From the IMG/VR virus record IMGVR_UViG_3300021399_000004, positions 96,001 to 160,000 of that record: a stretch of DNA of 64,000 nt. One strand, given 5' to 3'. This document shows, piece by piece, positions 6,135 to 25,239 of this stretch (its first letter is position 1; every line of letters starts with the position of its first letter). The translations under genes were made by a program, and so were the position numbers. The DNA is from a virus. The notes beneath the pieces are model-generated. The model was not told the origin of the DNA and made no database searches. It saw only the letters and a program-made list of their open reading frames with translations.

Positions 6135-6154
6135 TTAGATGTTCAAACATCTAA
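6135..6154. repeat. 20-bp palindrome TTAGATGTT-NN-AACATCTAA, copy 1
   Basis: Centre CA. It lies 19 bp from the + strand -35 TTGACA at 6174-6179 (-10 TATACT at 6197-6202). Confidence 0.95.
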
Positions 6155-6244
6155 CTTAAGGTGAATATAGGTCTTGACAAAATCAATGTTTTTTAGTATA
6201 CTCTAATTGTTCCGAGGGAACGAAATAAAAACCTGGAGGTAAGG

Positions 6245-6634
6245 TTGAGTATGATGTACATGCTGATTGGTTGGACTGACGGTTTCGGTAACGATGCTTA
6301 CGTGAAGAGCGTCTATCAGACGAGGGAAGAGGCACTCGCGGCGGCGATGCTGGATGATGAGATCCCTGACAAAGTTATTCCGTTTGAGTTTGGAGAAGCG
6401 ATTGATTTTGACTATGATGCGGCGGAAGATCTTGTGGAAAGGAAAGAAGAAATCGACTGGTTGCTTGTGGCTATAAACGCGGTGGATGATGATAAGTTTT
6501 ACTCCTTGCACGAAGAATGGTTTAATACTGGCTGCAATGAAGAAGAGGGAGACGGAGATGACGTTGATAAGTTAATTGCAAATCATAAAGATTGGCTGGA
6601 AGAATACTACAAAGAAAAGGGCGGCAAAATTTAA
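6245..6634 (+). CDS. hypothetical acidic protein (about 127-129 aa)
   Basis: ORF track. GGAGG lies at 6235-6239. ATG 6251 is a possible alternative start. No TAG. Confidence 0.55.
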   Translation: MSMMYMLIGWTDGFGNDAYVKSVYQTREEALAAAMLDDEIPDKVIPFEFGEAIDFDYDAAEDLVERKEEIDWLLVAINAVDDDKFYSLHEEWFNTGCNEEEGDGDDVDKLIANHKDWLEEYYKEKGGKI

Positions 6635-6764
6635 GGGAGGCTATGGCCTCCTGGCCGGCCCGCTTCCAAATAAATTTCTCAAACCTCTGACAATCTATCT
6701 CACCTATGTTATAATGAACATGTTGAAAGCAGAAGGACACTGCTCAAACCGGAAAGGAAAGACT

Positions 6765-6959
6765 ATGGAAAAGAACACTAACTCTCGCAACGGCATCGGT
6801 TTTACTGGCCTGCTTACCATTGCTTTCATTGTGTTGAAGCTGTGCGGCGTGATTACTTGGTCTTGGGTATGGGTTCTGTCTCCGATTTGGATTTCTGTTG
6901 GGATTGCTCTGATTGCTACTGGGCTGCTGGTGATTGTCCATCTTATCCGGAAGCATTGA
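6765..6959 (+). CDS. small membrane protein (64 aa)
   Basis: In-frame ATG within ORF 6576..6959, preceded by GGAAAGGAAAG. It has its own cTGACA-N17-TATAAT promoter upstream and two hydrophobic helices. Confidence 0.5.
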   Translation: MEKNTNSRNGIGFTGLLTIAFIVLKLCGVITWSWVWVLSPIWISVGIALIATGLLVIVHLIRKH

Positions 6960-6974
6960 GCATATGAGTATAAT

Positions 6975-6999
6975 AAAAAAGCCGGTCACCGGCTTTTTA
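6975..6999. terminator. bidirectional rho-independent terminator
   Basis: A6-GCCGG-tca-CCGGC-T5, located between convergent genes. Confidence 0.7.
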
Positions 7000-7011
7000 T
7001 TTAGGACGCAT

Positions 7012-7031
7012 TTAGATGTTTAAACATCTAA
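7012..7031. repeat. 20-bp palindrome, copy 2
   Basis: Centre TA. It sits at a convergent gene junction with no adjacent promoter. Confidence 0.95.
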
Positions 7032-7075
7032 AATCCTTTATAAAAAAAGTTAGGTTTCCCTAACTTTATAGTTTA

Positions 7076-7330
7076 TTATTTATACAAAAGGCACAGGAAG
7101 TAAACATTGAGGACAACGCTGGAGAGGTGCATGAGCACGTCATTGACGTGCCTGTGCTGCGACAAGTCCTTGCATACACCGAATAGCGCAATCGCAAGGC
7201 CGAACCATGAGACTTGAAGGCCGAAGAGCATAATCAGGACTACATTCAGGATAGTGATTCCGCACCGAAGATCATTCCATTCAAAGCGATACGGCATTGA
7301 AATGCCAAACCAGTTCTTTACTCGCTCCAT
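7076..7330 (-). CDS. hypothetical membrane protein (84 aa)
   Basis: ORF track. It is hydrophobic. Its start overlaps the upstream stop (TAATG). Confidence 0.55.
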   Translation of the reverse strand: MERVKNWFGISMPYRFEWNDLRCGITILNVVLIMLFGLQVSWFGLAIALFGVCKDLSQHRHVNDVLMHLSSVVLNVYFLCLLYK

Positions 7331-7623
7331 TATTCGTTATCCTCCATCGTGTCCTCGTAGCCGTAAACGTCACCCGCCCAACGGATTTCATCTTCTGCAA
7401 AATCCGTAGGGGCATCGGGATCAACGTCATCCGCGGCAAGCCAGTCTTCCCAAGTGGGGAAGAAGGCGTAGAAATCATCGCACGCTTCAATCGGATCTTC
7501 CATGTGGCACAGATTGCACTGGTCGCAGTAGGGGCAATCGCCATAGGCATTAACAGGGCAGTACACGGGGTCGCCGTTGCGGTAGCCGTCAGTTTCGTAG
7601 TGGTAATCCTTCATCGTGAACAT
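7330..7623 (-). CDS. Cys-rich acidic protein (97 aa)
   Basis: ORF track 7330..7692. The start MFTMKDY at 7623 follows GGAAAGGA in the cassette leader. It contains CPVNAYGDCPYCDQCNLCH. Confidence 0.55.
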   Translation of the reverse strand: MFTMKDYHYETDGYRNGDPVYCPVNAYGDCPYCDQCNLCHMEDPIEACDDFYAFFPTWEDWLAADDVDPDAPTDFAEDEIRWAGDVYGYEDTMEDNE

Positions 7624-7701
7624 ATCTGTCAATCCTTTCCGTTCCTCTCTCGGGAACAATGCTATTATAGCATGGAGGTTAGTATTTGTCAAGGGATAGA
7701 A

Positions 7702-7721
7702 TTAGATGTTTAAACATCTAA
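7702..7721. repeat. 20-bp palindrome, copy 3
   Basis: Centre TA. It lies 9 bp from the minus-strand -35 TTGACA (7687-7692). Confidence 0.95.
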
Positions 7722-7734
7722 CCTTGTTTAAGAG

Positions 7735-7754
7735 AAAAGCCGCCGGGGCGGCGG
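7735..7754 (-). terminator. rho-independent terminator
   Basis: On the minus strand, CCGCCG-ccc-CGGCGG followed by CUUUUCUCUU. It lies directly after the stop at 7759. Confidence 0.7.
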
Positions 7755-7758
7755 TATA

Positions 7759-8229
7759 TTAGTCTGTGTTTCGGTCATTAAGGGTAAAAGAAATCTCTGT
7801 CCACCCATCAGAACAATTGCCTAATTCTTTGGTGAAGCCTTCAAGTTCAAACTTATCCATGAGGAAACTTCGCATTTCTCCTCCCCACCAAGCACAATTA
7901 ACTTTCCAAAATCTGCGGTCTTTCAGTTTTAGATATTTCTTTGCAAGTTTAATATTCCAACCAAGGCCGTTGTCATAGAAGTAAAAGGTTTTATTTTCGG
8001 CGTCCCATTCAGAGTTACGAGGAATGTAATAGTTTAGAATTTTAGCCGCACGTTCTTCATTCCAATTCTCTTTGCTGTTAAGCCATACATGAATTTTTTT
8101 AAGCATGAGACTGCCAATCCAAAATGGAAACAGAATTACACGAAGAATCTTGTAACTATTCTTGTTCCACCACTTGCGAATCTTGTGTTCTTTCTTGCCC
8201 CGCATCGCCTTGATAACTTCATTTGTCAT
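7759..8229 (-). CDS. hypothetical protein (156 aa)
   Basis: ORF track, with cassette promoter and RBS upstream. Confidence 0.6.
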   Translation of the reverse strand: MTNEVIKAMRGKKEHKIRKWWNKNSYKILRVILFPFWIGSLMLKKIHVWLNSKENWNEERAAKILNYYIPRNSEWDAENKTFYFYDNGLGWNIKLAKKYLKLKDRRFWKVNCAWWGGEMRSFLMDKFELEGFTKELGNCSDGWTEISFTLNDRNTD

Positions 8230-8302
8230 AGTGGTTACTTCCTTTCTGTCCTTTGGACAGATTTATTATAGTATAGAATAAAGAGAAAGTCAAGTAGGAA
8301 TA

Positions 8303-8322
8303 TTAGATGTTTAAACATCTAA
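8303..8322. repeat. 20-bp palindrome, copy 4
   Basis: Centre TA. It lies 9 bp from the -35 TTGACT (8288-8293). Confidence 0.95.
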
Positions 8323-8364
8323 TGGGCTGGCCAGGTGACGGTATGATCGCCACCTAATACATTT

Positions 8365-8640
8365 TTAGTCTGTTTCCTTCTCATTTCGATGATACAATGT
8401 GTTAATAGTTTTACCTTCAGGAAGAGCGGCCAACCTCTTAATCCGCACATATTGCCAACGGTCATGAAGCAAGATAGCAGATCGGTAATCATAGTAAGTA
8501 GTGATAGTGTCTGTTTTCTGTGAATTGTAGACTAAAACACGTTCATCGTTAGCGAGATATTCATACAGTCCGTTTTCATAATCTACACGACAGAAGTCGG
8601 GTTGATGATAGTACACTTCCTTGCGCTTATGACTTTTCAT
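8365..8640 (-). CDS. hypothetical protein (91 aa)
   Basis: ORF track. It has no promoter of its own and appears to be co-transcribed with the small ORF upstream. Confidence 0.6.
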   Translation of the reverse strand: MKSHKRKEVYYHQPDFCRVDYENGLYEYLANDERVLVYNSQKTDTITTYYDYRSAILLHDRWQYVRIKRLAALPEGKTINTLYHRNEKETD

Positions 8641-8680
8641 ACTTAGTATCCCCTTTCTTGTTCGGAGAGTGTCCTTCTCT

Positions 8681-8770: not shown

Positions 8771-8849
8771 AGTGGCGTTCCTTTCTGTTTCTCTCTTTCA
8801 GGAACAACTGTATTATAGCATAGGTTGTGGCGATTGTCAAGAGTTTTTT

Positions 8850-9005: not shown

Positions 9006-9119
9006 TTGGTTCCCCTTTCTGGTTTATGGTGTTTTCCTTCACCTTTCAATGATAGTATATCATAAGATACATTTTTTGTCAAGGGGTTTTGAAAATTTTT
9101 TGGCGGGCCGGTCTGTAGG

Positions 9120-9139
9120 TTAGATGTTCAAACATCTAA
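9120..9139. repeat. 20-bp palindrome, copy 5
   Basis: Centre CA. It lies 37 bp from the -35 TTGACA (9077-9082). Confidence 0.95.
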
Positions 9140-9187
9140 ATTGGTTCCGGTTAAGCGTGTCTAACTCTTGCATAAAAGAAAAGCCCC

Positions 9188-10198
9188 TTAGTAGGGGCAG
9201 ACGGTGTTTGTGTATTCAGCAAGGCGGTGAAGTTTGTTAATAAGACTTGCGCAATAGTTGCTAATGGTGTCACTTTCCATTTTTGCGTCAAGGTAGGCAG
9301 AAATTGCGTTATAGACCGTTTCGCACTCTTCCATTTTAGGGGTTTTGCGGCGAGTGACAAAATCTACGGTGTCGCCAAGATCACGGAATGGGAAATATTT
9401 GATACCAATTGATACGGCGTGACGCTTTGCAATGCGGGAAAGAATATAAGTTTCAATAATGGCATCGTCCAGGGCTGTGTGACTCTCTATGAAATCATAT
9501 TTGTTACAGAGATATTGATAAGTAGTTTCGGCGCTGGTCTTGAAATAAGTTCCGGAGGCGGTCAGTAGGCCATGTTTGAGGCACTCGGTTTTATAGGTGG
9601 CATTATTCAGAAGATGAGAAGTAGCAAGCCCCCAAAGGTCAAAGAGCGGATAGGTTTCGCCGCGGAAAGTGAAGGCGTCCGGGTTAAAGTCTTTGTCAGA
9701 ATCTTTCTTGTAGGGTTCATTCGCAATCTTCCGGCAGAGATTTTTTTGAATCTGTTCCCACTTCTGATAGTCGGGGCTGTACAGTTTGCGAATATACAAT
9801 TCAGTGAACGGGATGGCCTTCTTAAAGTCAAACATTGCGTTAAAGGCTCCAACAGCGTCAACTTTGTGCAAGTCGTTAATGAAAATTTCCATGACCGTAT
9901 CCCACGGGGCAAGAACGGTTTCTTTATTTTCCAGCATTGCCAGATACCGAGGGCGCTTTTCCGCATAATAGGCGGTATTGAATACGGCGGGAACGGCGAA
10001 CGTTTCGGCAATCAGAAATTGCTTGTTTTCCAGAATATCGCCCTGCCGGTTAGTAATAGTCCAGCCAATATCGTAAATGAGCGGCCTTGCAATAGCGATC
10101 TTCTTCTTCTTTTCGGGATCACCGTCGGCAATTTCAGAGGCGAACGGGAGGGTAGCGGTTTCGGTATCGACAACCATGTACAGACGGCGCTTGCTCAT
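9188..10198 (-). CDS. DnaQ-like DEDDh 3'-5' exonuclease (336 aa)
   Basis: ORF track. Exo I is VVDTETA, Exo II is AFNAMFDF, Exo III is HTALDDAIIE. It is a paralogue of 18141..18902. Confidence 0.75.
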   Translation of the reverse strand: MSKRRLYMVVDTETATLPFASEIADGDPEKKKKIAIARPLIYDIGWTITNRQGDILENKQFLIAETFAVPAVFNTAYYAEKRPRYLAMLENKETVLAPWDTVMEIFINDLHKVDAVGAFNAMFDFKKAIPFTELYIRKLYSPDYQKWEQIQKNLCRKIANEPYKKDSDKDFNPDAFTFRGETYPLFDLWGLATSHLLNNATYKTECLKHGLLTASGTYFKTSAETTYQYLCNKYDFIESHTALDDAIIETYILSRIAKRHAVSIGIKYFPFRDLGDTVDFVTRRKTPKMEECETVYNAISAYLDAKMESDTISNYCASLINKLHRLAEYTNTVCPY

Positions 10199-10308
10199 AC
10201 GGCAGAAGTCCTTTCCGGTTTGAAGTGTTTTCCTTCACTTGATGGGTACAGTATAACATAAGCGGTGATAAAAGTCAATAGGGAAATTTGATGGGCATAG
10301 CCGTATTA

Positions 10309-10328
10309 TTAGATGTTCAAACATCTAA
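10309..10328. repeat. 20-bp palindrome, copy 6 (between divergent promoters)
   Basis: Centre CA. It lies 30 bp from the minus-strand -35 (10273-10278) and 29 bp from the plus-strand -35 TTGACT (10358-10363). Confidence 0.95.
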
Positions 10329-10411
10329 AAATGTTGAAGGAAAATTAAAAATATGGATTGACTTTTTTATAAAGTCGAGTATAATATAATTGTACCAAGA
10401 GAAAGGAGCCA

Positions 10412-10944: not shown

Positions 10945-10964
10945 TTAGATGTTTGAACATCTAA
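10945..10964. repeat. 20-bp palindrome, copy 7
   Basis: Centre TG. It sits at a convergent junction with no adjacent promoter. Confidence 0.95.
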
Positions 10965-11007: not shown

Positions 11008-11340
11008 TTAGCCCTTCACCGTGTAGGTGTTGGGCTTGCCCTCGGTCTTGACAAGCTCGTCAGCCCACAGGCGGGTAATGGCGTACTGCACATTGCCACG
11101 GGTTACGCCGGTGGGCAGGTCATTCTGGCAAGCCTCGTAAACCTCGCTAACCGTCAGCGACACAGGAGTGGACTTGAACACGTTGAACACAATGTCCTTC
11201 ATAGTCGTATACATGTCGGACTTGGCAGCCTTGACCTCGGCGCCACGGTTCAGCTCCTTGTCAACGGCGGCAAGCAGCTCGGTCTGATCGGGCATGGTAG
11301 ACAGGATGTTGCGGATAGCAGTCAGAGAAGCCTTCGTCAT
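11008..11340 (-). CDS. winged-helix-like protein, paralogue family A (110 aa)
   Basis: ORF track. The C-terminus is LTVSEVYEACQNDLPTGVTRGNVQYAITRLWADELVKTEGKPNTYTV. It aligns by eye with 14723..15061 and 17632..17976. Confidence 0.6.
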   Translation of the reverse strand: MTKASLTAIRNILSTMPDQTELLAAVDKELNRGAEVKAAKSDMYTTMKDIVFNVFKSTPVSLTVSEVYEACQNDLPTGVTRGNVQYAITRLWADELVKTEGKPNTYTVKG

Positions 11341-11518
11341 ATGGATACCCTTTCTGGTTTGTGGGGTTTTCCTTCCCCTGTTTTGTTGTTGTCCCTTGGG
11401 ACACTCTTATTGTACCACACTTTAGTGTGCTTGTCAAGGGAGTTTGGAAACTTTTTTTGAGTTTCAACTACGACCTTGCAACGGTGGTGTGGCTTGGAGT
11501 TCCCTCCTGACAGTATTT

Positions 11519-11547
11519 ATTATAGCAAAGGTTTAAGAAAAAGTCAA
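11519..11547 (-). promoter_or_regulatory. distal promoter upstream of the proximal promoter of 11008..11340
   Basis: TTGACT (11542-11547), N17, TATAAT (11519-11524). The next 25 nt (11502-11526) are identical to 15239-15263. Confidence 0.65.
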
Positions 11548-11566: not shown

Positions 11567-11586
11567 TTAGATGTTTAAACATCTAA
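11567..11586. repeat. 20-bp palindrome, copy 8
   Basis: Centre TA. It lies 19 bp from the -35 at 11542-11547. Confidence 0.95.
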
Positions 11587-12003: not shown

Positions 12004-12108
12004 CGTGAATCTCCTTTGGTTTGGTGGGTGTCCTTCCCTTGGTACGGTCTTATTATACCATAGCGGGATTTTATTGTCAAGAGATATATGCAGGAAAGTT
12101 AAAGAATA

Positions 12109-12128
12109 TTAGATGTTTGAACATCTAA
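12109..12128. repeat. 20-bp palindrome, copy 9
   Basis: Centre TG. It lies 28 bp from the -35 TTGACA (12075-12080). Confidence 0.95.
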
Positions 12129-12434: not shown

Positions 12435-12508
12435 ATTTGTGTACCTCCTTCGTACAATGGTATTATACTATGAGATTAGGCGTGTGTCAAGAGGAGTTCT
12501 AATGGCTA

Positions 12509-12528
12509 TTAGATGTTTGAACATCTAA
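12509..12528. repeat. 20-bp palindrome, copy 10
   Basis: Centre TG. It lies 18 bp from the -35 TTGACA (12485-12490). Confidence 0.95.
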
Positions 12529-12547: not shown

Positions 12548-12940
12548 TTACACCGCCACCTCACGGTCGAGATACTGGTTAGGGTCGTCCTTCTCTTCTT
12601 CTTCCTGAGCCTTGGCGGCCTTGGCGGCCCGGCGGGCCTTGTCAGCGGCAATCTTAGCCGCCTTTTCCTTAGCCTTGGCTTCGGCCTTCGCCGCCTTGGC
12701 GGCCTTTTCCTCTTTCCACGCTTCAGCCTCCACAAAGGGGTCAAACACACCGCCCTTGGCAGTCTCGGTGAAGGACTTGGACTTAACCGTGATCTCAGTC
12801 CAAACCTCCTGACCGTCTACCTCCTGCAACACGGCGAACGAGGCATCACCAAACTGCACAGCGGCAAGCTGTTCCAGAACGTCATGCAGGGCAGTCAGGG
12901 TCATGGCACGAGCGGCGGACTTGGCTTCCAGAATCTTCAT
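12548..12940 (-). CDS. protein with Lys/Ala-rich (histone H1-like) C-terminal tail, paralogue family B
   Basis: ORF track 12548..12946; the start is the ATG at 12940 after the conserved leader. The tail is EEKAAKAAKAEAKAKEKAAKIAADKARRAAKAAKA. Confidence 0.6.
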   Translation of the reverse strand: MKILEAKSAARAMTLTALHDVLEQLAAVQFGDASFAVLQEVDGQEVWTEITVKSKSFTETAKGGVFDPFVEAEAWKEEKAAKAAKAEAKAKEKAAKIAADKARRAAKAAKAQEEEEKDDPNQYLDREVAV

Positions 12941-13041
12941 AGGCAATTCCCTTTCTGGTTTTTTGGGGTTTTCCTTCCCCTTGGTACATGCTTATTATAC
13001 AGGATTCTTTGGTAAAAGTCAAGAATTTTTAGGGAGATAAA

Positions 13042-13061
13042 TTAGATGTTTGAACATCTAA
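13042..13061. repeat. 20-bp palindrome, copy 11
   Basis: Centre TG. It lies 19 bp from the -35 TTGACT (13017-13022). Confidence 0.95.
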
Positions 13062-13093
13062 TTTAGGTTTTAGGTAAAAGCCCTTGCGGGCTT

Positions 13094-14146
13094 TTACTTA
13101 ATAAATTCTTCAAGATGATTTTGATATTCAATAGCAAATTGCTTCTGGGCCGGGTCGGTCACGTCAGCATTGAAACGAGTAAGATACTGGATAATTTTGC
13201 CTTTGTGCGAAACTTCACATGTAATGCAGGGGGTATCTGGGGCAGAAATTTTCCGTACAGTAACAATGTAAGTTTCGTTATGAAATACTTTCGACATATA
13301 GAGATCTTCTACACAATTCTCTTGCGCCTTTGCTTCAATATGAAATGCTTCTTTGTTAAGAATTGGGCGCGCTTCATAATCCCGATATTGGAAGTAGAGG
13401 AATGGCTTGTCATTATTTTTAGTTAAAATAGAATCATAATTTTCTTGCTTATAAATTTTATAAAGATAGACCATTTTAGCATAAGCGGTTAAGAAATTAT
13501 GCGGCACTTTCACTTCATTATACATCATTATACTCATTTTATAATAGTTAATAATCAATTCTTCAAATTTAGGCTGGGCATAATATACATATGGATTATC
13601 ATCAATATTAGCAGAGAATGAATCAACATTTTCAAGAATCATTCGTTGTAGTATGGAGATAACGTAAGTACCGGGGATTTCTTGATGATGATATGCGATA
13701 GAACGAGCAATCTTTTTTGCCCAGTCGGGAAATCTTTCATGAGCAGGATAATTTTTAGAAAAGTTATAGGCGGCGACGGCGTTATCGCTATACATGCCAT
13801 TATAGTTATCTTTGATAAAGCTAACAAGCTCTTTAGTCAGACGGGAAGAGGAATCTAAAGCACTAAAACTTTCCGGAACTAATCCAACGGATATAAGCTG
13901 TTCAAGCCTGTTTGCTCTTGCTCGGGTGTACTTTTCTTTATAAGTTGATTCGTTCATTCTATACATATAGATAACACGAGCAAAAATATTATTACATGTA
14001 AGATTATTATAAGTAAATACTTGTGGAATGGTCTTAACAGGTTTATTAGACTTGCCGATGAAATTTCCAGTAGTGATATGCCACTTGCCCATCATCTCAT
14101 TCGCATGATATGCTACAATGTAATCTTTCTCTTTGATGAACTCCAT
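13094..14146 (-). CDS. hypothetical protein (350 aa), possibly with a PcfJ-like C-terminal region
   Basis: ORF track. GC is very low, about 25-30%. The segment ENCVEDLYMSKVFHNETYIVTVRK...PCITCEV..IIQYLTRFN weakly recalls PcfJ-like domains; this was not verified. Confidence 0.6.
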   Translation of the reverse strand: MEFIKEKDYIVAYHANEMMGKWHITTGNFIGKSNKPVKTIPQVFTYNNLTCNNIFARVIYMYRMNESTYKEKYTRARANRLEQLISVGLVPESFSALDSSSRLTKELVSFIKDNYNGMYSDNAVAAYNFSKNYPAHERFPDWAKKIARSIAYHHQEIPGTYVISILQRMILENVDSFSANIDDNPYVYYAQPKFEELIINYYKMSIMMYNEVKVPHNFLTAYAKMVYLYKIYKQENYDSILTKNNDKPFLYFQYRDYEARPILNKEAFHIEAKAQENCVEDLYMSKVFHNETYIVTVRKISAPDTPCITCEVSHKGKIIQYLTRFNADVTDPAQKQFAIEYQNHLEEFIK

Positions 14147-14241
14147 GCCGGCAACCTTTCTGGTTTGAGGTGTTTTCCTTCACCTTTCGAGAGTAGTATA
14201 CCACCGATTCAAAGGATTGTCAATAAGGAAAAATTCATAGA

Positions 14242-14261
14242 TTAGATGTTCAAACATCTAA
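14242..14261. repeat. 20-bp palindrome, copy 12
   Basis: Centre CA. It lies 18 bp from the -35 TTGACA (14218-14223). Confidence 0.95.
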
Positions 14262-14562: not shown

Positions 14563-14660
14563 TTTGAATCCTTTCTGGTTTTCGGGATTTTCCTTTCCCT
14601 TTGGAACGCTTTTAGTATAGCATAAGATGATTTGGAAATCAAGTCTAATTTTTGATGAGT

Positions 14661-14680
14661 TTAGATGTTTTAACATCTAA
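14661..14680. repeat. 20-bp palindrome, copy 13
   Basis: Centre TT. It lies 18 bp from the -35 TTGATT (14637-14642). Confidence 0.95.
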
Positions 14681-14722: not shown

Positions 14723-15061
14723 TTACGCCCTGCGGTAGCAGTTGACGCCCTTGACGCCCTCAACCTTGACGATGGCGTCACCCCACAGGCGGGTCAGACC
14801 ATAGCTGACCTTGCCCTTGGTAAAGCCCTCGGGGAGCTTGTCAGCGCACTCGTCATAGATCTCAGCGGCAGTCAGCGGGGCAGTGGTCATCGCAAGGACT
14901 TCCAGCACAGCGGCCTTCGCTTCGTCATAGGCGGACTTGCGCTCAGCCTTGGCGGCTTCGCCACGGTGCAGTTCGGCGTTGAGTTCGTCCATGATGGCGG
15001 TATCAGAGTAGCCAGTCTCGGTCAGGTAAGCAACAACAGCGGACAGAGTAGCCTTCTTCAT
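14723..15061 (-). CDS. winged-helix-like protein, paralogue family A (112 aa)
   Basis: ORF track. The C-terminus is LTAAEIYDECADKLPEGFTKGKVSYGLTRLWGDAIVKVEG. Confidence 0.6.
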   Translation of the reverse strand: MKKATLSAVVAYLTETGYSDTAIMDELNAELHRGEAAKAERKSAYDEAKAAVLEVLAMTTAPLTAAEIYDECADKLPEGFTKGKVSYGLTRLWGDAIVKVEGVKGVNCYRRA

Positions 15062-15255
15062 ACGGGAATCTCCTTCTGGTTTGGTGGGTTTTCCTTCCCT
15101 TGATTACGTGGTAATTATACCACAGATTTTGTTGGCTGTCAAGAGGAAGTTTTAAGTTTCGCAAACTTTTTTTTAGCACTTTGCGAAGGTAGAATTTTTA
15201 AGGCGCGGTGTCAAGGTGCTCGCTTGTCTTGTGCCCTTCCCTCCTGACAGTATTT

Positions 15256-15284
15256 ATTATAGCCGATTCTTTGATAAAAGTCAA
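15256..15284 (-). promoter_or_regulatory. distal promoter upstream of the proximal promoter of 14723..15061
   Basis: TTGACT (15279-15284), N17, TATAAT (15256-15261). The 25-nt leader start (15239-15263) is identical to 11502-11526. Confidence 0.65.
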
Positions 15285-15292
15285 ACAGTTAA

Positions 15293-15312
15293 TTAGATGT
15301 TTAAACATCTAA
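15293..15312. repeat. 20-bp palindrome, copy 14
   Basis: Centre TA. It lies 8 bp from the -35 at 15279-15284. Confidence 0.95.
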
Positions 15313-15769: not shown

Positions 15770-15841
15770 CCTTTCTGTTCCCTTGGAACAATTGCATTAT
15801 AGCATAAAATTAAATTGCTGTCAAGAGGCCTGGAAATAATA

Positions 15842-15861
15842 TTAGATGTTAAAACATCTAT
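15842..15861. repeat. 20-bp palindrome, copy 15 (last base T)
   Basis: Centre AA. It lies 17 bp from the -35 TTGACA (15819-15824). Confidence 0.9.
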
Positions 15862-16211: not shown

Positions 16212-16297
16212 AGATTTTTCTCCTTTTGGTTTAGAGTTTTCCTTCTCCTAATTACAATTGGAGTATACTATATTTATGGTATTTTGTCAACATAAAA

Positions 16298-16317
16298 TTA
16301 GATGTTCAAACATCTAA
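16298..16317. repeat. 20-bp palindrome, copy 16
   Basis: Centre CA. It lies 7 bp from the -35 TTGACA (16285-16290). Confidence 0.95.
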
Positions 16318-16767: not shown

Positions 16768-16866
16768 CTTGTTTATCCTTTCTGGCTTTAGAGATTCTTT
16801 CCTTTTGGGAACAATGACAGTATAGCATACATTAAAAAAGAAGTCAAGGTAGAAAATGAAATAAGA

Positions 16867-16886
16867 TTAGATGTTTGAACATCTAA
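16867..16886. repeat. 20-bp palindrome, copy 17
   Basis: Centre TG. It lies 19 bp from the -35 TTGACT (16842-16847). Confidence 0.95.
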
Positions 16887-16919: not shown

Positions 16920-17285
16920 TTACTGAGTATTTTCCTTCAACTTCTGCTTGGCAGCACGCTTGGCATTGTCGGCCGCAATTTTCGCCGCTTTCTTGGCGTC
17001 GGCTGCCGCCTTCTTCGCCTTCTTCTCTTCCATGTCAAGGCGGTACTCTTCGGCGGCGGCGTAGGCATCGTACTCAATGTAACCGCCCTGTCCGTCACGA
17101 GTACCACGGGGGATAGATACCTTGACAAGTGCAAACTTCTCATTCTGTGCGCTGTCAAGTACGGGGATGGCGATTTCGTTTCCGCTAACGTCAATAGCGT
17201 CTACGTCAAAGTGGGCGGCAAGCGCCTGGCGGATCACGTCAAGAACCTCATTGCGGATGGGGGTGTTCAGTTCTTCCTTGCTCAT
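16920..17285 (-). CDS. protein with Lys/Ala-rich (H1-like) C-terminal tail, paralogue family B (121 aa)
   Basis: ORF track. The tail is EEKKAKKAAADAKKAAKIAADNAKRAAKQK. It shares AAKIAAD(K/N)A(R/K)RAAK with 12548..12940. Confidence 0.6.
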   Translation of the reverse strand: MSKEELNTPIRNEVLDVIRQALAAHFDVDAIDVSGNEIAIPVLDSAQNEKFALVKVSIPRGTRDGQGGYIEYDAYAAAEEYRLDMEEKKAKKAAADAKKAAKIAADNAKRAAKQKLKENTQ

Positions 17286-17355: not shown

Positions 17356-17505
17356 TCAAGGGGTATCGTCGCAAAAGCTGGTGAAAATTCCAAAGATACC
17401 CAGCATTATAAATGCAAGCACGCCGAAGATGGTGTCTCCAAAGATTGCAAATGCGGCCAATAGTGCAACGATGATCCCAAAGATCAAGTACCCGATAGCG
17501 TTCAT
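17356..17505 (-). CDS. small membrane protein (49 aa)
   Basis: In-frame start MNAIGYLIFGIIVALLAAF after AAGGAGGAG, within ORF 17356..17562. The -35 of the next promoter overlaps its stop codon. Confidence 0.45.
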   Translation of the reverse strand: MNAIGYLIFGIIVALLAAFAIFGDTIFGVLAFIMLGIFGIFTSFCDDTP

Positions 17506-17569
17506 ACTTGACTCCTCCTTTATTTTCATGTATATTATAGCATAAAATTTTATAGTTGTCAAATAATTA

Positions 17570-17589
17570 TTAGATGTTTAAACATCTAA
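17570..17589. repeat. 20-bp palindrome, copy 18
   Basis: Centre TA. It lies 7 bp from the -35 TTGACA (17557-17562). Confidence 0.95.
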
Positions 17590-17631: not shown

Positions 17632-17976
17632 TTACGCCTTGCGGCTATACAGGGTGGCGCCCTTGCTACCCTTGTCCGCAATCAGTTCGTCTACCCAATA
17701 GCGGGTCATGGCGTACTGCATCTTGCCCTTGGTGAAACCATCGGGCAGCTGGTCAGCAATGCTCTCATACAGCTCACTGACCGTTACGGGGCCAACAGCA
17801 TCCGCAAGACCATTCATCACGACATCATGCGCCTCAGCGTACAGCTCGCGATTCGCCTGCGCCTTGACGGCGTTCTTGTTCAGCTCAGCCTCCAGCTCAG
17901 CCTTGATTTCATCGAGGTTGGTCACAGTCTCGCCGTTGAGGTAGGAAACGAGGGACATCATGGTGGACTTCTTCAT
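17632..17976 (-). CDS. winged-helix-like protein, paralogue family A (114 aa)
   Basis: ORF track 17632..18081. The start MKKSTMMSL at 17976 follows the conserved leader. The C-terminus is VTVSELYESIADQLPDGFTKGKMQYAMTRYWVDELIADKG. Confidence 0.6.
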   Translation of the reverse strand: MKKSTMMSLVSYLNGETVTNLDEIKAELEAELNKNAVKAQANRELYAEAHDVVMNGLADAVGPVTVSELYESIADQLPDGFTKGKMQYAMTRYWVDELIADKGSKGATLYSRKA

Positions 17977-18096
17977 ATGGGGTTCTCCTTTGGTTTGTGA
18001 GGTTTTCCTTCCTCTATTTTTTCTGTCCCCTCTCTTGGGAACAATTGTATTATAGCAAAAGTCATAGTAAAAGTCAAGCAATAAATCAAGAAATAA

Positions 18097-18116
18097 TTAG
18101 ATGTTTAAACATCTAA
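18097..18116. repeat. 20-bp palindrome, copy 19
   Basis: Centre TA. It lies 19 bp from the -35 TTGACT (18072-18077). Confidence 0.95.
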
Positions 18117-18902: not shown

Positions 18903-18992
18903 ATTGTGTAGCTCCTTTCAAGTATATGGTTTTGGGGAACGGTAGTATTATAACATGACTAAAGATATGTGTCAATAGCCTGGAAGATTAAA

Positions 18993-19012
18993 TTAGATGT
19001 TTAAACATCTAA
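18993..19012. repeat. 20-bp palindrome, copy 20
   Basis: Centre TA. It lies 17 bp from the -35 TTGACA (18970-18975). Confidence 0.95.
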
Positions 19013-19233: not shown

Positions 19234-19388
19234 CTTTTTTTACCTCTTTCTTTTTCTTTGTCGGGAGGGAGCGTGAGTCTCATCCACACTGTAGGCTTCC
19301 GAGGAATGCGTTTTCCCTCCCGACAATGGTATAATACCATATTACGGGAAAATTGTCAAGAGGTTTTTTGAACTCGGAAAAAGGCTGT

Positions 19389-19408
19389 TTAGATGTTCAA
19401 ACATCTAA
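19389..19408. repeat. 20-bp palindrome, copy 21
   Basis: Centre CA. It lies 29 bp from the -35 TTGACA (19354-19359). Confidence 0.95.
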
Positions 19409-19686: not shown

Positions 19687-19780
19687 GGTTTTTTCTCCTT
19701 TCTTTCGGTGGGTTTCCTCTCACCGTGATTAGAGTATAACATAATGGAGGATAAAAGTCAATAGTGCATATTGAGTTCAT

Positions 19781-19800
19781 TTAGATGTTTGAACATCTAA
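19781..19800. repeat. 20-bp palindrome, copy 22
   Basis: Centre TG. It lies 19 bp from the -35 TTGACT (19756-19761). Confidence 0.95.
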
Positions 19801-20134: not shown

Positions 20135-20220
20135 CGTTCCAATCTCCTTTTATGTATTTTCTGGGAACGTCTATAATATAGCATAAAGTCATAAGATTGT
20201 CAAGACTTTTTTATGGCAGA

Positions 20221-20240
20221 TTAGATGTTCAAACATCTAA
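20221..20240. repeat. 20-bp palindrome, copy 23
   Basis: Centre CA. It lies 17 bp from the -35 TTGACA (20198-20203). Confidence 0.95.
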
Positions 20241-20549: not shown

Positions 20550-20645
20550 TGTTGTGATCCTCCATTTTTTTATTCTGTACCTCTTTGGTACGGTTATATA
20601 TTAGCATATACGGTTAAAAAAGTCAATAGGATTTTTCGCCTGATT

Positions 20646-20665
20646 TTAGATGTTCAAACATCTAA
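20646..20665. repeat. 20-bp palindrome, copy 24
   Basis: Centre CA. It lies 19 bp from the -35 TTGACT (20621-20626). Confidence 0.95.
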
Positions 20666-20871: not shown

Positions 20872-20950
20872 TGTAGTGACCTCCATTTTTTATTATCCCC
20901 TCGGGACGATTATAGTTTACCATACATATGATATATTGTCAAGATGGAAT

Positions 20951-20970
20951 TTAGATGTTTGAACATCTAA
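20951..20970. repeat. 20-bp palindrome, copy 25
   Basis: Centre TG. It lies 8 bp from the -35 TTGACA (20937-20942). Confidence 0.95.
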
Positions 20971-21061: not shown

Positions 21062-21364
21062 TTAGCAGTAGGCAAGGCTCATGTTCGCCCACTTGAGAAC
21101 CGAAATCTGATTGTGCTTGCGGCCGATCTCCATCGCCTGCCGCTTAGTCTTGACGCGGAAGCTGTGATCGATGTAGTAAACGCCGTCGCTGTACCAGATC
21201 CCGCAGCTGCCGTTCATCTTCTTTACAGCTTCCGCAGCTTCCGCAGCCGTCTTGCATTCAACCCCGTGATCGGCCACCTGCCAACCCGTCTTGTAGGTGA
21301 TGACCTTGCCGTTCTTCAGGGTGAGACCATCGTTGTTCTTGAGCGCCTTGAGCATTTCCAACAT
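21062..21364 (-). CDS. hypothetical protein (100 aa)
   Basis: ORF track. Confidence 0.55.
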   Translation of the reverse strand: MLEMLKALKNNDGLTLKNGKVITYKTGWQVADHGVECKTAAEAAEAVKKMNGSCGIWYSDGVYYIDHSFRVKTKRQAMEIGRKHNQISVLKWANMSLAYC

Positions 21365-21456
21365 TGTTGCATCCTCTTTTCTTTTTATTCTGTCCCTTCG
21401 GACAAGTATATATTACCATATAGCAAGCAAAAAGTCAAGGGCATTTTTGAGAGGAA

Positions 21457-21476
21457 TTAGATGTTTAAACATCTAA
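21457..21476. repeat. 20-bp palindrome, copy 26
   Basis: Centre TA. It lies 18 bp from the -35 TTGACT (21433-21438). Confidence 0.95.
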
Positions 21477-21706: not shown

Positions 21707-21777
21707 TGCCTCCTTTTCTTGGAACGATTATAGTATATCATACTTGTTTTTGTTTGTCAATAGGAAAATAAAAAAGA

Positions 21778-21797
21778 TTAGATGTTGAAACATCTAA
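21778..21797. repeat. 20-bp palindrome, copy 27
   Basis: Centre GA. It lies 17 bp from the -35 TTGACA (21755-21760). Confidence 0.95.
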
Positions 21798-21980: not shown

Positions 21981-22065
21981 GTTGATTCCTTCCTTTCTGT
22001 TCCCTTTGGAACGATTACATTATAGCATACTTGTGAAGAAAAATCAAGTGGTTTGCACTATTTCA

Positions 22066-22085
22066 TTAGATGTTGAAACATCTAA
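22066..22085. repeat. 20-bp palindrome, copy 28
   Basis: Centre GA. It lies 18 bp from the -35 TTGATT (22042-22047). Confidence 0.95.
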
Positions 22086-22272: not shown

Positions 22273-22378
22273 CGTACATTCTCCTTTCTTTATCCCCTTG
22301 GGACAATATCATTATATAGGATTTTAGTATGTTTGTCAATAGGCATTGTAAAAAAATTAATAGAAAATAAAATTAAGA

Positions 22379-22398
22379 TTAGATGTTTAAACATCTAA
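22379..22398. repeat. 20-bp palindrome, copy 29
   Basis: Centre TA. It lies 39 bp from the -35 TTGACA (22334-22339). Confidence 0.95.
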
Positions 22399-22426
22399 CC
22401 TTCAATTGTTAAAGTGTCTCCCGCGA

Positions 22427-22591: not shown

Positions 22592-22676
22592 ATGTTTTCC
22601 TTCCTTTCCGTTCCTCTTGGAACGTCTATATTATAGCATACTCGCAATTACTTGTCAACGTGTTTATGAAAATGAA

Positions 22677-22696
22677 TTAGATGTTCAAACATCTAA
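22677..22696. repeat. 20-bp palindrome, copy 30
   Basis: Centre CA. It lies 18 bp from the -35 TTGACA (22653-22658). Confidence 0.95.
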
Positions 22697-22707
22697 CTCT
22701 TGGAGGC

Positions 22708-22851: not shown

Positions 22852-22940
22852 TTTCTTTTCCTCCTTTTTTGTTCGTTCCTTTGGAACAGTTATATTATAT
22901 CATGGTAGGATAGTCCTGTCAACAGAGTGAGAAAAATAAA

Positions 22941-22960
22941 TTAGATGTTCAAACATCTAA
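22941..22960. repeat. 20-bp palindrome, copy 31
   Basis: Centre CA. It lies 18 bp from the -35 TTGACA (22917-22922). Confidence 0.95.
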
Positions 22961-22976
22961 CAACGTTGGTGGGCCG

Positions 22977-23102
22977 TTAGGCCCACCGCATCAATTCATC
23001 AAATTCCTCAAAAGTCATGGGGTCGTCCTCATCAGTATTCGCCTGATACTCCCAGAACAGATAGATCTGCTCCGCGTCGGTCAGTTCATCCCAATTAATC
23101 AT
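22977..23102 (-). CDS. hypothetical acidic protein (41 aa)
   Basis: Hand translation gives MINWDELTDAEQIYLFWEYQANTDEDDPMTFEEFDELMRWA. The gene is 126 nt. Its TAA lies in the loop of GGTGGGCC-gtta-GGCCCACC (22968-22987). Confidence 0.4.
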   Translation of the reverse strand: MINWDELTDAEQIYLFWEYQANTDEDDPMTFEEFDELMRWA

Positions 23103-23196
23103 TTTTGTTTTCTCCTTCGTTTCTTTATTTTGTCCCTCCGGACAAGTATAGTATACTGTATGTTCAATAAAAAGTCAACATGAATTTTTCAGAGGA

Positions 23197-23216
23197 TTAG
23201 ATGTTTAAACATCTAA
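23197..23216. repeat. 20-bp palindrome, copy 32
   Basis: Centre TA. It lies 18 bp from the -35 TTGACT (23173-23178). Confidence 0.95.
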
Positions 23217-23359
23217 CTTTTGAAAAAAACGATGATAAGTTTCTTTGCTATTTTTTTACCGATAAGTCATGCGGAAGAAATAGCAGAAAGTACTGCCTGA
23301 TTTGATAGAAAAGTCATCACATTCAAATCTATTAAATAATTATTCTAGCTTGTCGGTGT

Positions 23360-23389
23360 CCAGCTGGCGCCCAGCTGGTGTCCAGCTGG
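23360..23389. repeat. three CCAGCTGG palindromes at an exact 11-bp period
   Basis: Copies lie at 23360-23367, 23371-23378 and 23382-23389. They sit inside the transcript of the cassette promoter at 23541-23546. Confidence 0.85.
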
Positions 23390-23564
23390 CTGGCCCGTAG
23401 GGCGCGAGTTGCGCCGCGGCGAGCCTCAAAAAATTTATAGGTAACTATGATAAACAGATCTTCTTGATTCTCTTTTTTAGGTGGTAGTTGGAGAGACATT
23501 GCCCCTCCAATGATGATAGTATACTACATTACACGTTCATTGTCAATCATGATAGCGTGGATAA

Positions 23565-23584
23565 TTAGATGTTCAAACATCTAA
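23565..23584. repeat. 20-bp palindrome, copy 33
   Basis: Centre CA. It lies 18 bp from the -35 TTGACA (23541-23546). Confidence 0.95.
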
Positions 23585-23653
23585 CTACCATGGGCATCCG
23601 GACATCTAACTACTGTTAGATGCGAAAAAAGGGGGGGCTTGCGCCCCTCCTTT

Positions 23654-23965
23654 TTACTTCATTGTTTTGAACCAGTAGTTTTCATTGGTGTTCCAGTAGT
23701 GCAGGCGGCACAGTCGGCTGTTCCAGCTCTTAACAATAGCGTCCGGCGGGCAATCCGTCAAGTGGCGGCTCAGCCCTTCACCGCAGGCAATCTCAACCTT
23801 GAGATAGAACCCTTCGGCGGTCTTACCCTCCCGCGTGATCTTTACCATGGGAGTGGCGCCGCGCCCGCCCTTCAAGTAGTAGTGGCGCGCGGTCTTTTCC
23901 AGCAGGCGAACCATGGTCAGCAGGTTGAAGTAGTCGGGAGCGAAGACGGCGATCAGAATCATCAT
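23654..23965 (-). CDS. hypothetical protein (103 aa), paralogue of 27744..28055
   Basis: ORF track 23654..24028. The start MMILIAVF follows GGAGG. The C-terminus HYWNTNENYWFKTMK resembles HAWNTNDDYWYETKAE in the paralogue. Confidence 0.55.
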   Translation of the reverse strand: MMILIAVFAPDYFNLLTMVRLLEKTARHYYLKGGRGATPMVKITREGKTAEGFYLKVEIACGEGLSRHLTDCPPDAIVKSWNSRLCRLHYWNTNENYWFKTMK

Positions 23966-24069
23966 GATGGACACCTCCAAATTTTTTTCTGTTCCCCCTT
24001 GGAACAATTGTATTATAGCATACATCATTCATCCTGTCAACCCCTATTTTACATCTAAAAATGCATTAG

Positions 24070-24089
24070 TTAGATGTTGAAACATCTAA
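24070..24089. repeat. 20-bp palindrome, copy 34
   Basis: Centre GA. It lies 29 bp from the -35 TTGACA (24035-24040). Confidence 0.95.
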
Positions 24090-24105
24090 TTACTGTTTAA
24101 GGATT

Positions 24106-24143
24106 TAACTAATATTTAAACATCTAACTAATATTTAAACATT
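24106..24143. repeat. tandem 19-nt direct repeat TAACTAATATTTAAACAT(C/T)
   Basis: Copies lie at 24106-24124 and 24125-24143. The first copy, read into the start of the second, spells the palindrome half-site AAACATCTAAC; the second has the diverged AAACATTTAAG. Confidence 0.85.
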
Positions 24144-24428
24144 TAAGAATAAAATTCATCGCTGGAAGAGTTGATTAAAAACTGTAAAATAAAGTCAAGC
24201 GCGCAAAAATTATAATAGTTAAGTTCGTCAAATAAGGTCTTAATTTCACTTATTATGGCACAGATTTTAAAATAGAATGCGATGGCTACTGGTAGATAGG
24301 TGTAATAAAAAGATTTCCTTGATAATATATTTTTCTAACTGTGGGTGCTATCTTGGAAATGATATTATATTATAGTTTACAATTATTGTTAATTGAGTTT
24401 TGGGAAAATTAAATATGTTAAGATTAGA

Positions 24429-24448
24429 TTAGATGTCTAAACATCTAA
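24429..24448. repeat. 20-bp palindrome, copy 35 (one mismatch, TTAGATGTCTAAACATCTAA)
   Basis: Located in the AT-rich non-coding region with no clear promoter next to it. Confidence 0.9.
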
Positions 24449-24690
24449 CATGAAATAGTTAAATGTTGTAAAATTTTATATTAGTTGAGGGGGAAATGAA
24501 TGATATTTAAAATTAATAAAATATTATATAGATATGGGAATTGATTATTTGAAAATTTTTATTCCAAATAAAATAGCATTGAAAATGAAATATGCCCAGC
24601 TCGCATATAATTATAAAAATAATATTTTTTCTTCGGTCGATGCAAGCAGTTGGCGATAACAAAATATAATAATAAATGATAATAATAATT

Positions 24691-24719
24691 ATTATACCAC
24701 ATTTTGGGATAAAAGTCAA
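24691..24719 (-). promoter_or_regulatory. orphan cassette promoter (no ORF downstream)
   Basis: TTGACT (24714-24719), N17, TGGTATAAT (-10 at 24691-24696). Confidence 0.6.
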
Positions 24720-24727
24720 GAGACTAA

Positions 24728-24747
24728 TTAGATGTTAAAACATCTAA
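24728..24747. repeat. 20-bp palindrome, copy 36
   Basis: Centre AA. It lies 8 bp from the -35 at 24714-24719. Confidence 0.95.
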
Positions 24748-24926
24748 CTTGAAAATGAAATTGTAGGATTTTAAATTAGGAATTTTTATAATTTTATTTG
24801 AATAATAATTTAAAATAAAATTATGTTATTTTGCCAGCTCGCATTATTATGTTTATAGGAAAACATTCTTCGTTAATAATATTAAGTATCTGATATGAAA
24901 AGAAAATAAAATTAAAGATATTATTT

Positions 24927-24955
24927 ATTATACCACGTTTCAGGAAAAAAGTCAA
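24927..24955 (-). promoter_or_regulatory. orphan cassette promoter (no ORF downstream)
   Basis: TTGACT (24950-24955), N17, TGGTATAAT (-10 at 24927-24932). Confidence 0.6.
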
Positions 24956-24963
24956 GTCTTAAA

Positions 24964-24983
24964 TTAGATGTTTAAACATCTAA
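24964..24983. repeat. 20-bp palindrome, copy 37
   Basis: Centre TA. It lies 8 bp from the -35 at 24950-24955. Confidence 0.95.
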
Positions 24984-25182
24984 CTTGGAAATGAAATAAG
25001 ACTGTTATGGGAGAAAATTTTTTATATATTCAACTTATATATTTTGTCTATTTAAAAATAAAATAATAATGTAATTAAAATAATACGAGCTTCAGCTTGC
25101 ATATCATTTCGGGTTTTACTCTTGCTTTCGTGGATCAATGATAACATTTGAAAACTAAATTGAAATCAAAAAGTAATTATCT

Positions 25183-25211
25183 ATTATACCATATTTTGGG
25201 AAAAAAGTCAA
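25183..25211 (-). promoter_or_regulatory. orphan cassette promoter (no ORF downstream)
   Basis: TTGACT (25206-25211), N17, TGGTATAAT (-10 at 25183-25188). Confidence 0.6.
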
Positions 25212-25219
25212 CCTTAAAA

Positions 25220-25239
25220 TTAGATGTTCAAACATCTAA
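25220..25239. repeat. 20-bp palindrome, copy 38
   Basis: Centre CA. It lies 8 bp from the -35 at 25206-25211. Confidence 0.95.

Follow-up and report, generated by a model that had tools for sequence, protein, structure and literature searches.

A 20-bp Palindrome Repeated at Helical-Turn Distances from Early Promoters: A Probable Operator in a TAG-Recoded Phage

A 20-bp palindrome is found 38 times in a stretch of viral DNA, i.e., the 64,000 nucleotides at positions 96,001 to 160,000 of the IMG/VR virus record IMGVR_UViG_3300021399_000004 (hereafter the window, to which coordinates refer unless a relative is named), and its distance to the -35 box of the neighboring promoter falls into classes about one helical turn apart. 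We consider that this palindrome is probably a DNA operator for one phage-encoded, sequence-specific, and likely dimeric protein contacting RNA polymerase. This is the most likely reading because the palindrome stands in a presumably untranscribed gap between a terminator and a promoter. Moreover, since the arms are fixed in each genome while the center and flanks drift, and since they differ from one lineage to another, a single sequence-specific binder explains them best. An earlier note on this DNA (the original prediction) had proposed a phage-wide operator network served by one dimeric protein; sequence comparison supports the single binder, and the network is limited to a 19-kb early module.

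The Palindrome and Its Copies

The palindrome reads TTAGATGTT-NN-AACATCTAA. Searching the window for the pattern TTAGATGTTNNAACATCTAA gives 36 perfect hits, which all fall within positions 6135-25239; shuffled sequences give none. Two more copies carry one mismatch (15842-15861 and 24429-24448), which gives the 38 copies in 19 kb that had been announced, and a mismatch-tolerant scan adds a relic with three mismatches at 25263. Because of the two one-mismatch copies, the arms, which had been called invariant, are nearly but not strictly so (2 of 684 arm positions deviate). The G and C positions are constant throughout the 38 copies. The central dinucleotide does vary, with six forms when read towards the promoter (n = 37): TA in 12 cases, TG in 11, CA in 8, TC in 3, TT in 2, and AA in 1; a pyrimidine-purine step thus occupies the center in 31 of 37. 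As the original prediction stated, no copy lies in the TAG-recoded late region of the window. None was found either in the 9.4 kb leftward on the same contig (74 kb of phage scanned overall), and the motif is absent from late and operonic regions. We also observed a few orphan half-sites AACATCTAA in the AT-rich zone at 24.1-27.1 kb (at 24119, 25254, 25274, and 26920).

The copies are listed below with the strand of the promoter, the position of its -35 box, and the gap between palindrome and -35 box.

6135-6154, plus promoter, -35 at 6174, gap 19 bp
7012-7031, no promoter, between convergent terminators
7702-7721, minus promoter, -35 at 7692, gap 9 bp
8303-8322, minus promoter, -35 at 8293, gap 9 bp
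9120-9139, minus promoter, -35 at 9082, gap 37 bp
10309-10328, divergent promoters: plus, -35 at 10358, gap 29 bp; minus, -35 at 10278, gap 30 bp
10945-10964, no promoter, between convergent terminators
11567-11586, minus promoter P1 of winged-helix gene wA, -35 at 11547, gap 19 bp
12109-12128, minus promoter, -35 at 12080, gap 28 bp
12509-12528, minus promoter, -35 at 12490, gap 18 bp
13042-13061, minus promoter, -35 at 13022, gap 19 bp; distal edge is a breakpoint of a strain-level cassette swap
14242-14261, minus promoter, -35 at 14223, gap 18 bp
14661-14680, minus promoter, -35 (TTGATT) at 14642, gap 18 bp
15293-15312, minus promoter P1 of winged-helix gene wB, -35 at 15284, gap 8 bp
15842-15861 (one mismatch), minus promoter, -35 at 15824, gap 17 bp
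16298-16317, minus promoter, -35 at 16290, gap 7 bp
16867-16886, minus promoter, -35 at 16847, gap 19 bp
17570-17589, minus promoter, -35 at 17562, gap 7 bp
18097-18116, minus promoter of winged-helix gene wC, -35 at 18077, gap 19 bp
18993-19012, minus promoter, -35 at 18975, gap 17 bp
19389-19408, minus promoter, -35 at 19359, gap 29 bp
19781-19800, minus promoter, -35 at 19761, gap 19 bp
20221-20240, minus promoter, -35 at 20203, gap 17 bp
20646-20665, minus promoter, -35 at 20626, gap 19 bp
20951-20970, minus promoter, -35 at 20942, gap 8 bp
21457-21476, minus promoter, -35 at 21438, gap 18 bp
21778-21797, minus promoter, -35 at 21760, gap 17 bp
22066-22085, minus promoter, -35 at 22047, gap 18 bp
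22379-22398, minus promoter, -35 at 22339, gap 39 bp
22677-22696, minus promoter, -35 at 22658, gap 18 bp
22941-22960, minus promoter, -35 at 22922, gap 18 bp
23197-23216, minus promoter, -35 at 23178, gap 18 bp
23565-23584, minus promoter, -35 at 23546, gap 18 bp
24070-24089, minus promoter, -35 at 24040, gap 29 bp
24429-24448 (one mismatch), minus promoter, -35 (TTAACA) at 24392, gap 36 bp
24728-24747, minus promoter, -35 at 24719, gap 8 bp
24964-24983, minus promoter, -35 at 24955, gap 8 bp
25220-25239, minus promoter, -35 at 25211, gap 8 bp

Spacing to the -35 Box

Promoters were placed by a script scanning with weighted -35 and -10 boxes, and a second, independent scan tool puts the same -35 hexamers. 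The script gives one clear promoter per palindrome (score 17-20.7, with the runner-up at 15 or below). This makes 37 palindrome-promoter pairs, two copies being promoterless and one, at 10309, being paired twice; both scans agree that the latter is flanked by divergent promoters, 29 bp away on one side and 30 bp on the other, as predicted. The gaps form four classes, i.e., nine pairs at 7, 7, 8 (five times), 9, and 9 bp; twenty pairs at 17 (four times), 18 (nine times), and 19 bp (seven times); five pairs at 28, 29 (three times), and 30 bp; and three pairs at 36, 37, and 39 bp. All gaps of 10-16, 20-27, and 31-35 bp are empty. The original prediction had described the same four classes from 36 pairs; it had missed the 36-bp pair at 24429, and its third empty range, given as 31-36, stops at 35.

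The best period of these gaps is 10.2 bp (Rayleigh R = 0.87, p ~8e-13), and none of 20,000 uniform null sets scored as high. The slope between classes is 10.03 bp. Scripted recomputation thus agrees with the helical steps of about 10.3 bp first reported, and both the script and the independent tool return discrete classes and not a continuous distribution. The spacers inside one gap class cannot be aligned with each other; therefore, the classes are not the product of copy-paste or recent duplication. Many of the 17-19-bp spacers carry AAAAA(T/G) or a T-tract adjoining the -35 box.

Measured from the -35 hexamer, the dyad center stands 18, 28, 39, or 47 bp further upstream, which would correspond to about -53.5, -63.5, -74.5, and -83 if the start site is taken as 7 nucleotides after the -10 box. 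The distance is fixed to the -35 box and independent of the 16- or 17-bp length of the promoter spacer, so it is not set from the -10 box. Both in the window and in the pairs of the phage family described below, sites are displaced upstream of the -35 box by whole turns to the exclusion of half turns, as in class I operators.

The Phased Pattern in Related Phages

About 90 related loci were obtained by protein-guided searches in large (120-190 kb) contigs of rumen viromes. In every palindrome-bearing lineage, the early promoters are preceded by a repeated palindrome that is particular to the lineage and uniform inside its genome: TTAGATGTT-N-AACATCTAA (the window arms with one central base), TTAGATGT-N3-ACATCTAA, TTAGGTGT..., TTGGATGT..., TTATGTT..., or longer inverted repeats. 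The search of related metagenomic phages that had been proposed gave the same phased pattern with lineage-specific arms. Other lineages have no palindrome and present phased A-tracts at the same position; they include phAss-1, the nearest GenBank relative.

The quantization is replicated in these phages. In one relative (L005), the gaps are 8 bp (17 times), 9 bp (twice), 18 bp (three times), 28 bp (twice), and 39 bp (once) (period 10.1 bp, R = 0.98). Of six orthologous genes, four show a gap of 18-19 bp in the window as opposed to 8-9 bp in this relative. We then pooled the relatives, window excluded, into 509 unique palindrome-promoter pairs. Their distance from palindrome center to -35 box is 16-19.5 bp in 433 pairs (mode 18.5), 26.5-32.5 in 20, 37.5-42.5 in 31, 48.5-56.5 in 16, and 75.5-77.5 in 8, and the zones 20-26, 33-37, 43-48, and 57-75 are empty. 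Relative to the 18.5-bp position, the next three classes are shifted outward by about 10, 21, and 32 bp. We rejected the idea that displaced sites are second copies behind a proximal palindrome, since two palindromes at one promoter were seen only once in 546 pairs. Some displaced sites are orthologous across phages, so not all of them are independent. In the relatives, many promoters with an adjacent site have weak -35 boxes of the TTGCnn type.

Other repeats were noticed near promoters of the relatives. One apparently orthologous promoter has a second conserved, TTGTATACAGAATACA-like element between palindrome and -35 box (L104 18299, L144 8374, L156 8375, L168 8373, L177 5611, L178 193, L136 5122, and L145 8356). 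In L167, L103, and L106, TTAAC direct repeats abut the -35 box. In L014, a tandem array of ~48-bp units at 9043-9567, each with GTTAGTTAGTCATAACTAAC (12 copies), lies directly upstream of a sigma-like gene and shows no clear sigma-70-type promoters.

The Early Cassettes

The genes at 7-25 kb are nearly all on the minus strand and are organized in cassettes. On the coding strand, from 5' to 3', a cassette consists of a GC-rich terminator of variable sequence, 5-15 nucleotides, the palindrome, a variable spacer, and the promoter, followed by a short GTNCC...GGNAC leader hairpin, a strong ribosome-binding site, and a small open reading frame (ORF). The early promoter is of near-consensus sigma-A form, i.e., TTGAC(A/T), 17 bp, usually TGn, and TATAAT. 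Being placed after the terminator and before the promoter, the palindrome is expected to lie in untranscribed DNA.

The leader has features of its own. Most early minus-strand transcripts would start with the hairpin GTNCC-N3-5-GGNAC, a few bases past the -10 box (for instance at 22609-22624, 22875-22887, 23990-24006, 21391-21404, 11390-11403, and 8245-8261). Its variants look compensatory (GTTCC/GGAAC, GTCC/GGAC, and GTACC/GGTAC), and it may be a 5' stabilizer or a second operator. A leader motif G(A/G)GG-AAGGAAAA-CC(N)C...AAACCAGAAAGG stands directly before the start codon in about 10 genes, including wA, wB, and wC (minus strand, upstream of 11340, 15061, 17976, 12946, 14146, 14565, 10198, and 9005), and its 3' edge is one end of a strain-level cassette swap.

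This swap was found in a strain, L121, which is 99.6% identical. Here, the ORF and terminator at 13062-14155 are replaced by an unrelated ORF of 122 amino acids, with breakpoints exactly at the conserved leader/Shine-Dalgarno sequence and at the edge of the palindrome (copy 13042-13061). The window has a 350-amino-acid PcfJ-like gene at this place and L121 an acidic protein of 122 amino acids (L121 11764-12158). Secondarily, the two repeats, palindrome and leader, double as homology points for the exchange of ORF cassettes.

Alternative Explanations

The palindrome could be bound by a protein of the host, either a transcription factor or a nucleoid protein, with the differences between lineages reflecting their hosts. 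The early promoters are of host sigma-A form, an early activator would be required at the moment of infection, and the phage has yielded only candidate binders. However, among 185,579 bacterial and archaeal species genomes, none has more than one copy of the motif, and no array or regulon was found, which argues against a host regulon and also against sequenced prophages. Exact-motif scans of IMG/VR and metagenome contigs gave single chance matches only, apart from two relatives. Moreover, close phages from the same rumen sample sets differ in their arms, and a phage-encoded winged-helix family co-occurs with the palindrome arrays. We therefore regard a host factor as unlikely.

Another explanation is that the palindrome is only a recombination or cassette-boundary element without any role in transcription, in the manner of the PeSL elements of T4-type phages, whose cassette layout is similar (PMC2839356, PMC4122927). 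The L121 breakpoints at the Shine-Dalgarno sequence and the palindrome edge go in this direction, as do the promoterless copies 7012 and 10945, which lie at gene junctions. However, recombination homology needs no fixed helical phase to the -35 box, and such a role leaves invariant arms beside a free center and free flanks unexplained. A boundary role alone is thus rather improbable.

The palindrome could also work without protein, as a cruciform or hairpin, or as bent, "super-UP" DNA tuning supercoiling or the binding of the alpha C-terminal domain (alpha-CTD) of RNA polymerase. It occupies the position of an UP element, it is AT-rich with a flexible pyrimidine-purine center, and phages sharing the same arms differ in the number of central bases. 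On the other hand, an UP element is an A/T-tract at -40 to -60 without fixed G or C, recognized by the alpha-CTD alone, whereas the G and C positions are invariant here. The hairpin is weak (-5.7 kcal/mol, compared with -9.4 for a neighboring terminator). No compensatory arm variants occur inside a genome, and a covariation test found no pairing in the flanks, so the stem is not extended. Finally, any palindrome would do structurally, yet exactly one sequence is used per genome. An action of the bare DNA is hardly probable.

That the upstream transcript carries the palindrome at its 3' end, as a back-up terminator or an RNA hairpin, is very improbable, as the original prediction already held: a terminator scan flags four copies with T-rich DNA after the palindrome, but an intrinsic terminator is a GC-rich stem directly followed by a U-tract, whereas the palindrome, with no more than 2-3 GC pairs in its stem, comes after the true, separate GC-rich terminators that precede most copies, keeps its distance to the downstream -35 box and not to the upstream gene, and matches no Rfam family in a scan of the window.

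Predicted Mode of Action

The operator reading predicts that the binder would dock on the palindrome in the untranscribed gap of each early cassette. With dyads at whole-turn positions, the bound protein would face RNA polymerase always from the same side of the helix. It would touch the enzyme most likely via the alpha-CTD, as at CRP class I promoters, and in the displaced classes an UP-element-like A-tract often separates the operator from the -35 box. In this way, ~36 early promoters would be under the joint control of one protein. Protein binding, polymerase contact, and transcription start sites are all deduced here from the DNA letters.

The direction of control can be read in two ways. 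Activation or recruitment has roughly an even chance, being favored by the precision of plus or minus 1 bp over hundreds of promoters and by the weak -35 boxes beside adjacent sites in relatives. Contact repression or early shut-off is a lesser but real possibility, because the window promoters are near consensus and because early genes need to be shut off before the recoded late phase.

Candidate Binders

The original prediction had named three kinds of candidates, i.e., three winged-helix paralogues, a recoded helix-turn-helix (HTH) gene, and the regulator gene 29133-30428. The paralogues gain circumstantial support, and the regulator looks like a late sigma factor. The relevant genes are the following.

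11008-11340, minus strand: winged-helix paralogue wA, 110 amino acids, candidate binder; palindrome-less proximal promoter P2, -35 at 11437
14723-15061, minus strand: winged-helix paralogue wB, 112 amino acids, candidate binder; palindrome-less proximal promoter P2, -35 at 15142
17632-17976, minus strand: winged-helix paralogue wC, 114 amino acids, candidate binder; protein modelled
29133-30428, plus strand: TAG-recoded, sigma-factor-like gene opening the late module, with a match to a phage sigma-factor family

The winged-helix family is the best candidate, although we place it somewhat below even chance. The family, which carries no annotation, has more than 220 homologues. The AlphaFold2 model of wC (pLDDT 93.5) shows a long helix then a winged helix, and Foldseek aligns it best with DNA-binding domains of the Zur, Fur, PerR, ArsR, and MarR proteins (root-mean-square deviation ~2 Å over 63-66 residues). 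When loci are selected by an unrelated gene, 12 of 14 palindrome-rich ones contain the family, and 9 of 10 palindrome-free ones lack it (the tenth has one weak 20-bit match), as does phAss-1. Two promoters in tandem precede wA as well as wB: a distal, palindrome-linked one and a proximal, palindrome-less one with an A-tract. Such a palindrome-less proximal promoter precedes 45 of 50 genes of the family, in 24 cases in tandem with a palindrome-linked one, and with duplicates removed, lack of a palindrome is far commoner among promoters upstream of winged-helix genes than among the remaining promoters (odds ratio 4.9, p = 7e-11). These promoters would fit, circumstantially, a regulator made independently of its own site; the winged-helix genes would then be expressed first.

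The other candidates fare less well. The gene 29133-30428 is likely a late regulator and not the palindrome binder. The recoded HTH protein of 66 amino acids (1559-1759) has only a weak HTH_3 match and is not traceable in relatives. A conserved 100-amino-acid protein (21062-21364) was rejected because its homologues also occur in palindrome-free phages. We also considered a co-variation between recognition helix and operator, in which one subfamily has KGK..TH versus RH(K/N)/RYK..NN between the A and G classes, and do not use it as evidence: this subfamily is missing from the window phage and many others, and the A-class helix also occurs in phages with unrelated motifs.

Two paralogous early proteins (12548-12946 and 16920-17285, minus strand), with lysine/alanine-rich, histone-H1-like tails, are probably general DNA binders; gene 16920-17285 has a palindrome-less promoter, with its -35 box at 17359.

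A broader scenario, which we hold to be doubtful, is that the winged-helix regulator family replaced a generic UP element with a private, phase-locked operator, giving an immediate-early to delayed-early cascade and a genome-wide co-evolution of operator and regulator. The regulator genes would be transcribed first from palindrome-less promoters, and 20-40 cassettes would follow from palindrome-linked ones. Operator and regulator would shift specificity across all sites of one genome at once (TTAGATGT, TTAGGTGT, TTGGATGT, and others).

Several observations weigh against an operator bound by a winged-helix protein of the phage, or against its simplest forms. Copies 7012 and 10945 lie between convergent terminators without a promoter. 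The same arms enclose 1, 2, or 3 central bases depending on the phage, a variation to which a rigid dimer would need to adapt, while a hairpin would be indifferent. The displaced sites of the relatives, taken alone, are looser (best period 11.7 bp, R = 0.56), and some of them hold extra conserved elements between palindrome and -35 box. The window promoters are already near consensus, so an activator should be unneeded, and an upstream site is unusual for a simple repressor. As for the binder, the Foldseek E-values of the wC model are only 0.008-0.05, and the evidence for the family is circumstantial and confounded by phylogeny. No single orthologous winged-helix subfamily is present in all palindrome-bearing loci, and none tracks the operator class cleanly.

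The Phage and Its Surrounding Genome

An ENA scaffold of 129 kb, with the sample label SHIW14-1, contains the window at 100% identity. TAG is a sense codon in the late genes (29106-64000) and in the genes of the left flank (1-5800), and the early cassettes use the standard code. Recoded genes include a ResIII helicase (4379-5788), the HTH protein mentioned above, and, at 43389-60260, an ORF of 5623 amino acids that is probably the tape measure (cf. PMC10607447). No suppressor tRNA was found within the window, where the tRNA scan was empty. The major capsid protein has 36% identity to that of the code-15 phage phAss-1 and 24-31% to those of SPbeta-like Enterococcus and Staphylococcus phages, and the promoters, ribosome-binding sites, and terminators are of Firmicutes type. 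Megablast of the region against GenBank phages gave no match, ~40 proteins from the early region and its flanks received almost no function from Pfam and PHROG scans, and PDB sequence searches with three conserved small proteins gave no match.

Other features were noted around the early module. Just ahead of the first palindrome, iteron-like direct repeats occupy 5925-6090 (GATTTTCACTAC three times and TCCAGCTT five times). Between the early and late modules, a 3-kb non-coding zone (24100-27150, GC ~0.21) contains the short repeats GAAATGAAAT and TGGGATTT and, at 26140-26500, a (ATGTATAT)n microsatellite; it may be an origin or genome end. It is followed on the minus strand by an island of GC 0.54 with four small genes and no palindrome (27190-29000), one of which is a paralogue of gene 23654-24028 (common HxWNTNxxYW motif). 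This island looks like an acquired cassette.

Significance and Comparison with Known Systems

The face-of-the-helix rule comes mostly from engineered promoters. The palindrome offers a natural series, with four phased distances in one genome, and the more than 500 further phased cases in relatives make hundreds of natural replicates. These sites would define a large, coordinately controlled early regulon in uncultivated TAG-recoded rumen phages, and they point to an unannotated and testable family of candidate regulators. For synthetic biology, they would provide compact parts, namely a 20-bp operator whose permitted positions are known and variants that are orthogonal by nature. Moreover, they show regulatory repeats doubling as cassette-swap points in a Firmicutes-type phage.

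At class I promoters, CRP acts from permitted sites at -61.5, -71.5, -82.5, and -92.5. The palindrome resembles these sites as a dimer-type element upstream of the -35 box with permitted positions whole turns apart, and its displaced classes leave room for alpha-CTD or an UP-like A-tract before the -35 box. However, its modal position across the phage family, ~-53.5, is not a CRP position, the core promoters of the window are near consensus and not weak, and ~36 promoters are gathered in 19 kb, with a candidate binder that is apparently phage-encoded.

A site upstream of the -35 box with helix-face-dependent action is also common to phi29 p4, which activates A3 and represses A2c, to GalR at OE (-60.5), and to P2 Ogr, whose dyad lies near -55. 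Regulators of this type activate, or repress strong promoters by over-stabilizing contacts. These systems serve one to six promoters, and we know of none with a natural series of four phased positions per genome.

In SPbeta, the 15-bp motif SPBRE is repeated at ~10 promoters and bound by the master repressor MrpR/YopR, which has a recombinase fold (PMC10516654). By description, it is likewise a short element repeated in many early promoter regions (here 38 copies, 36 of them beside promoters), and SPBRE-MrpR may be regarded as the closest precedent, in a distantly related lineage of large siphophages. Among the proteins covered by the Pfam and PHROGs scans (74 kb of ~129 kb), no MrpR-like gene or integrase was found. 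The system described here differs by its 38 sites, its perfect 20-bp palindrome, and its strict helical phasing.

The PeSL elements of T4-type phages are the nearest likeness in layout. There as here, dozens of small early ORFs fill a plastic region, each with a sigma-70-type promoter, an upstream repeat, and a terminator, and the repeats are exchange points for cassettes, as in the one L121 swap. However, the PeSL stem-loop is the GC-rich terminator itself (PMC2839356, PMC4122927), whereas this phage has separate, variable terminators and, in addition to them, the invariant AT-rich palindrome, quantized to the -35 box.

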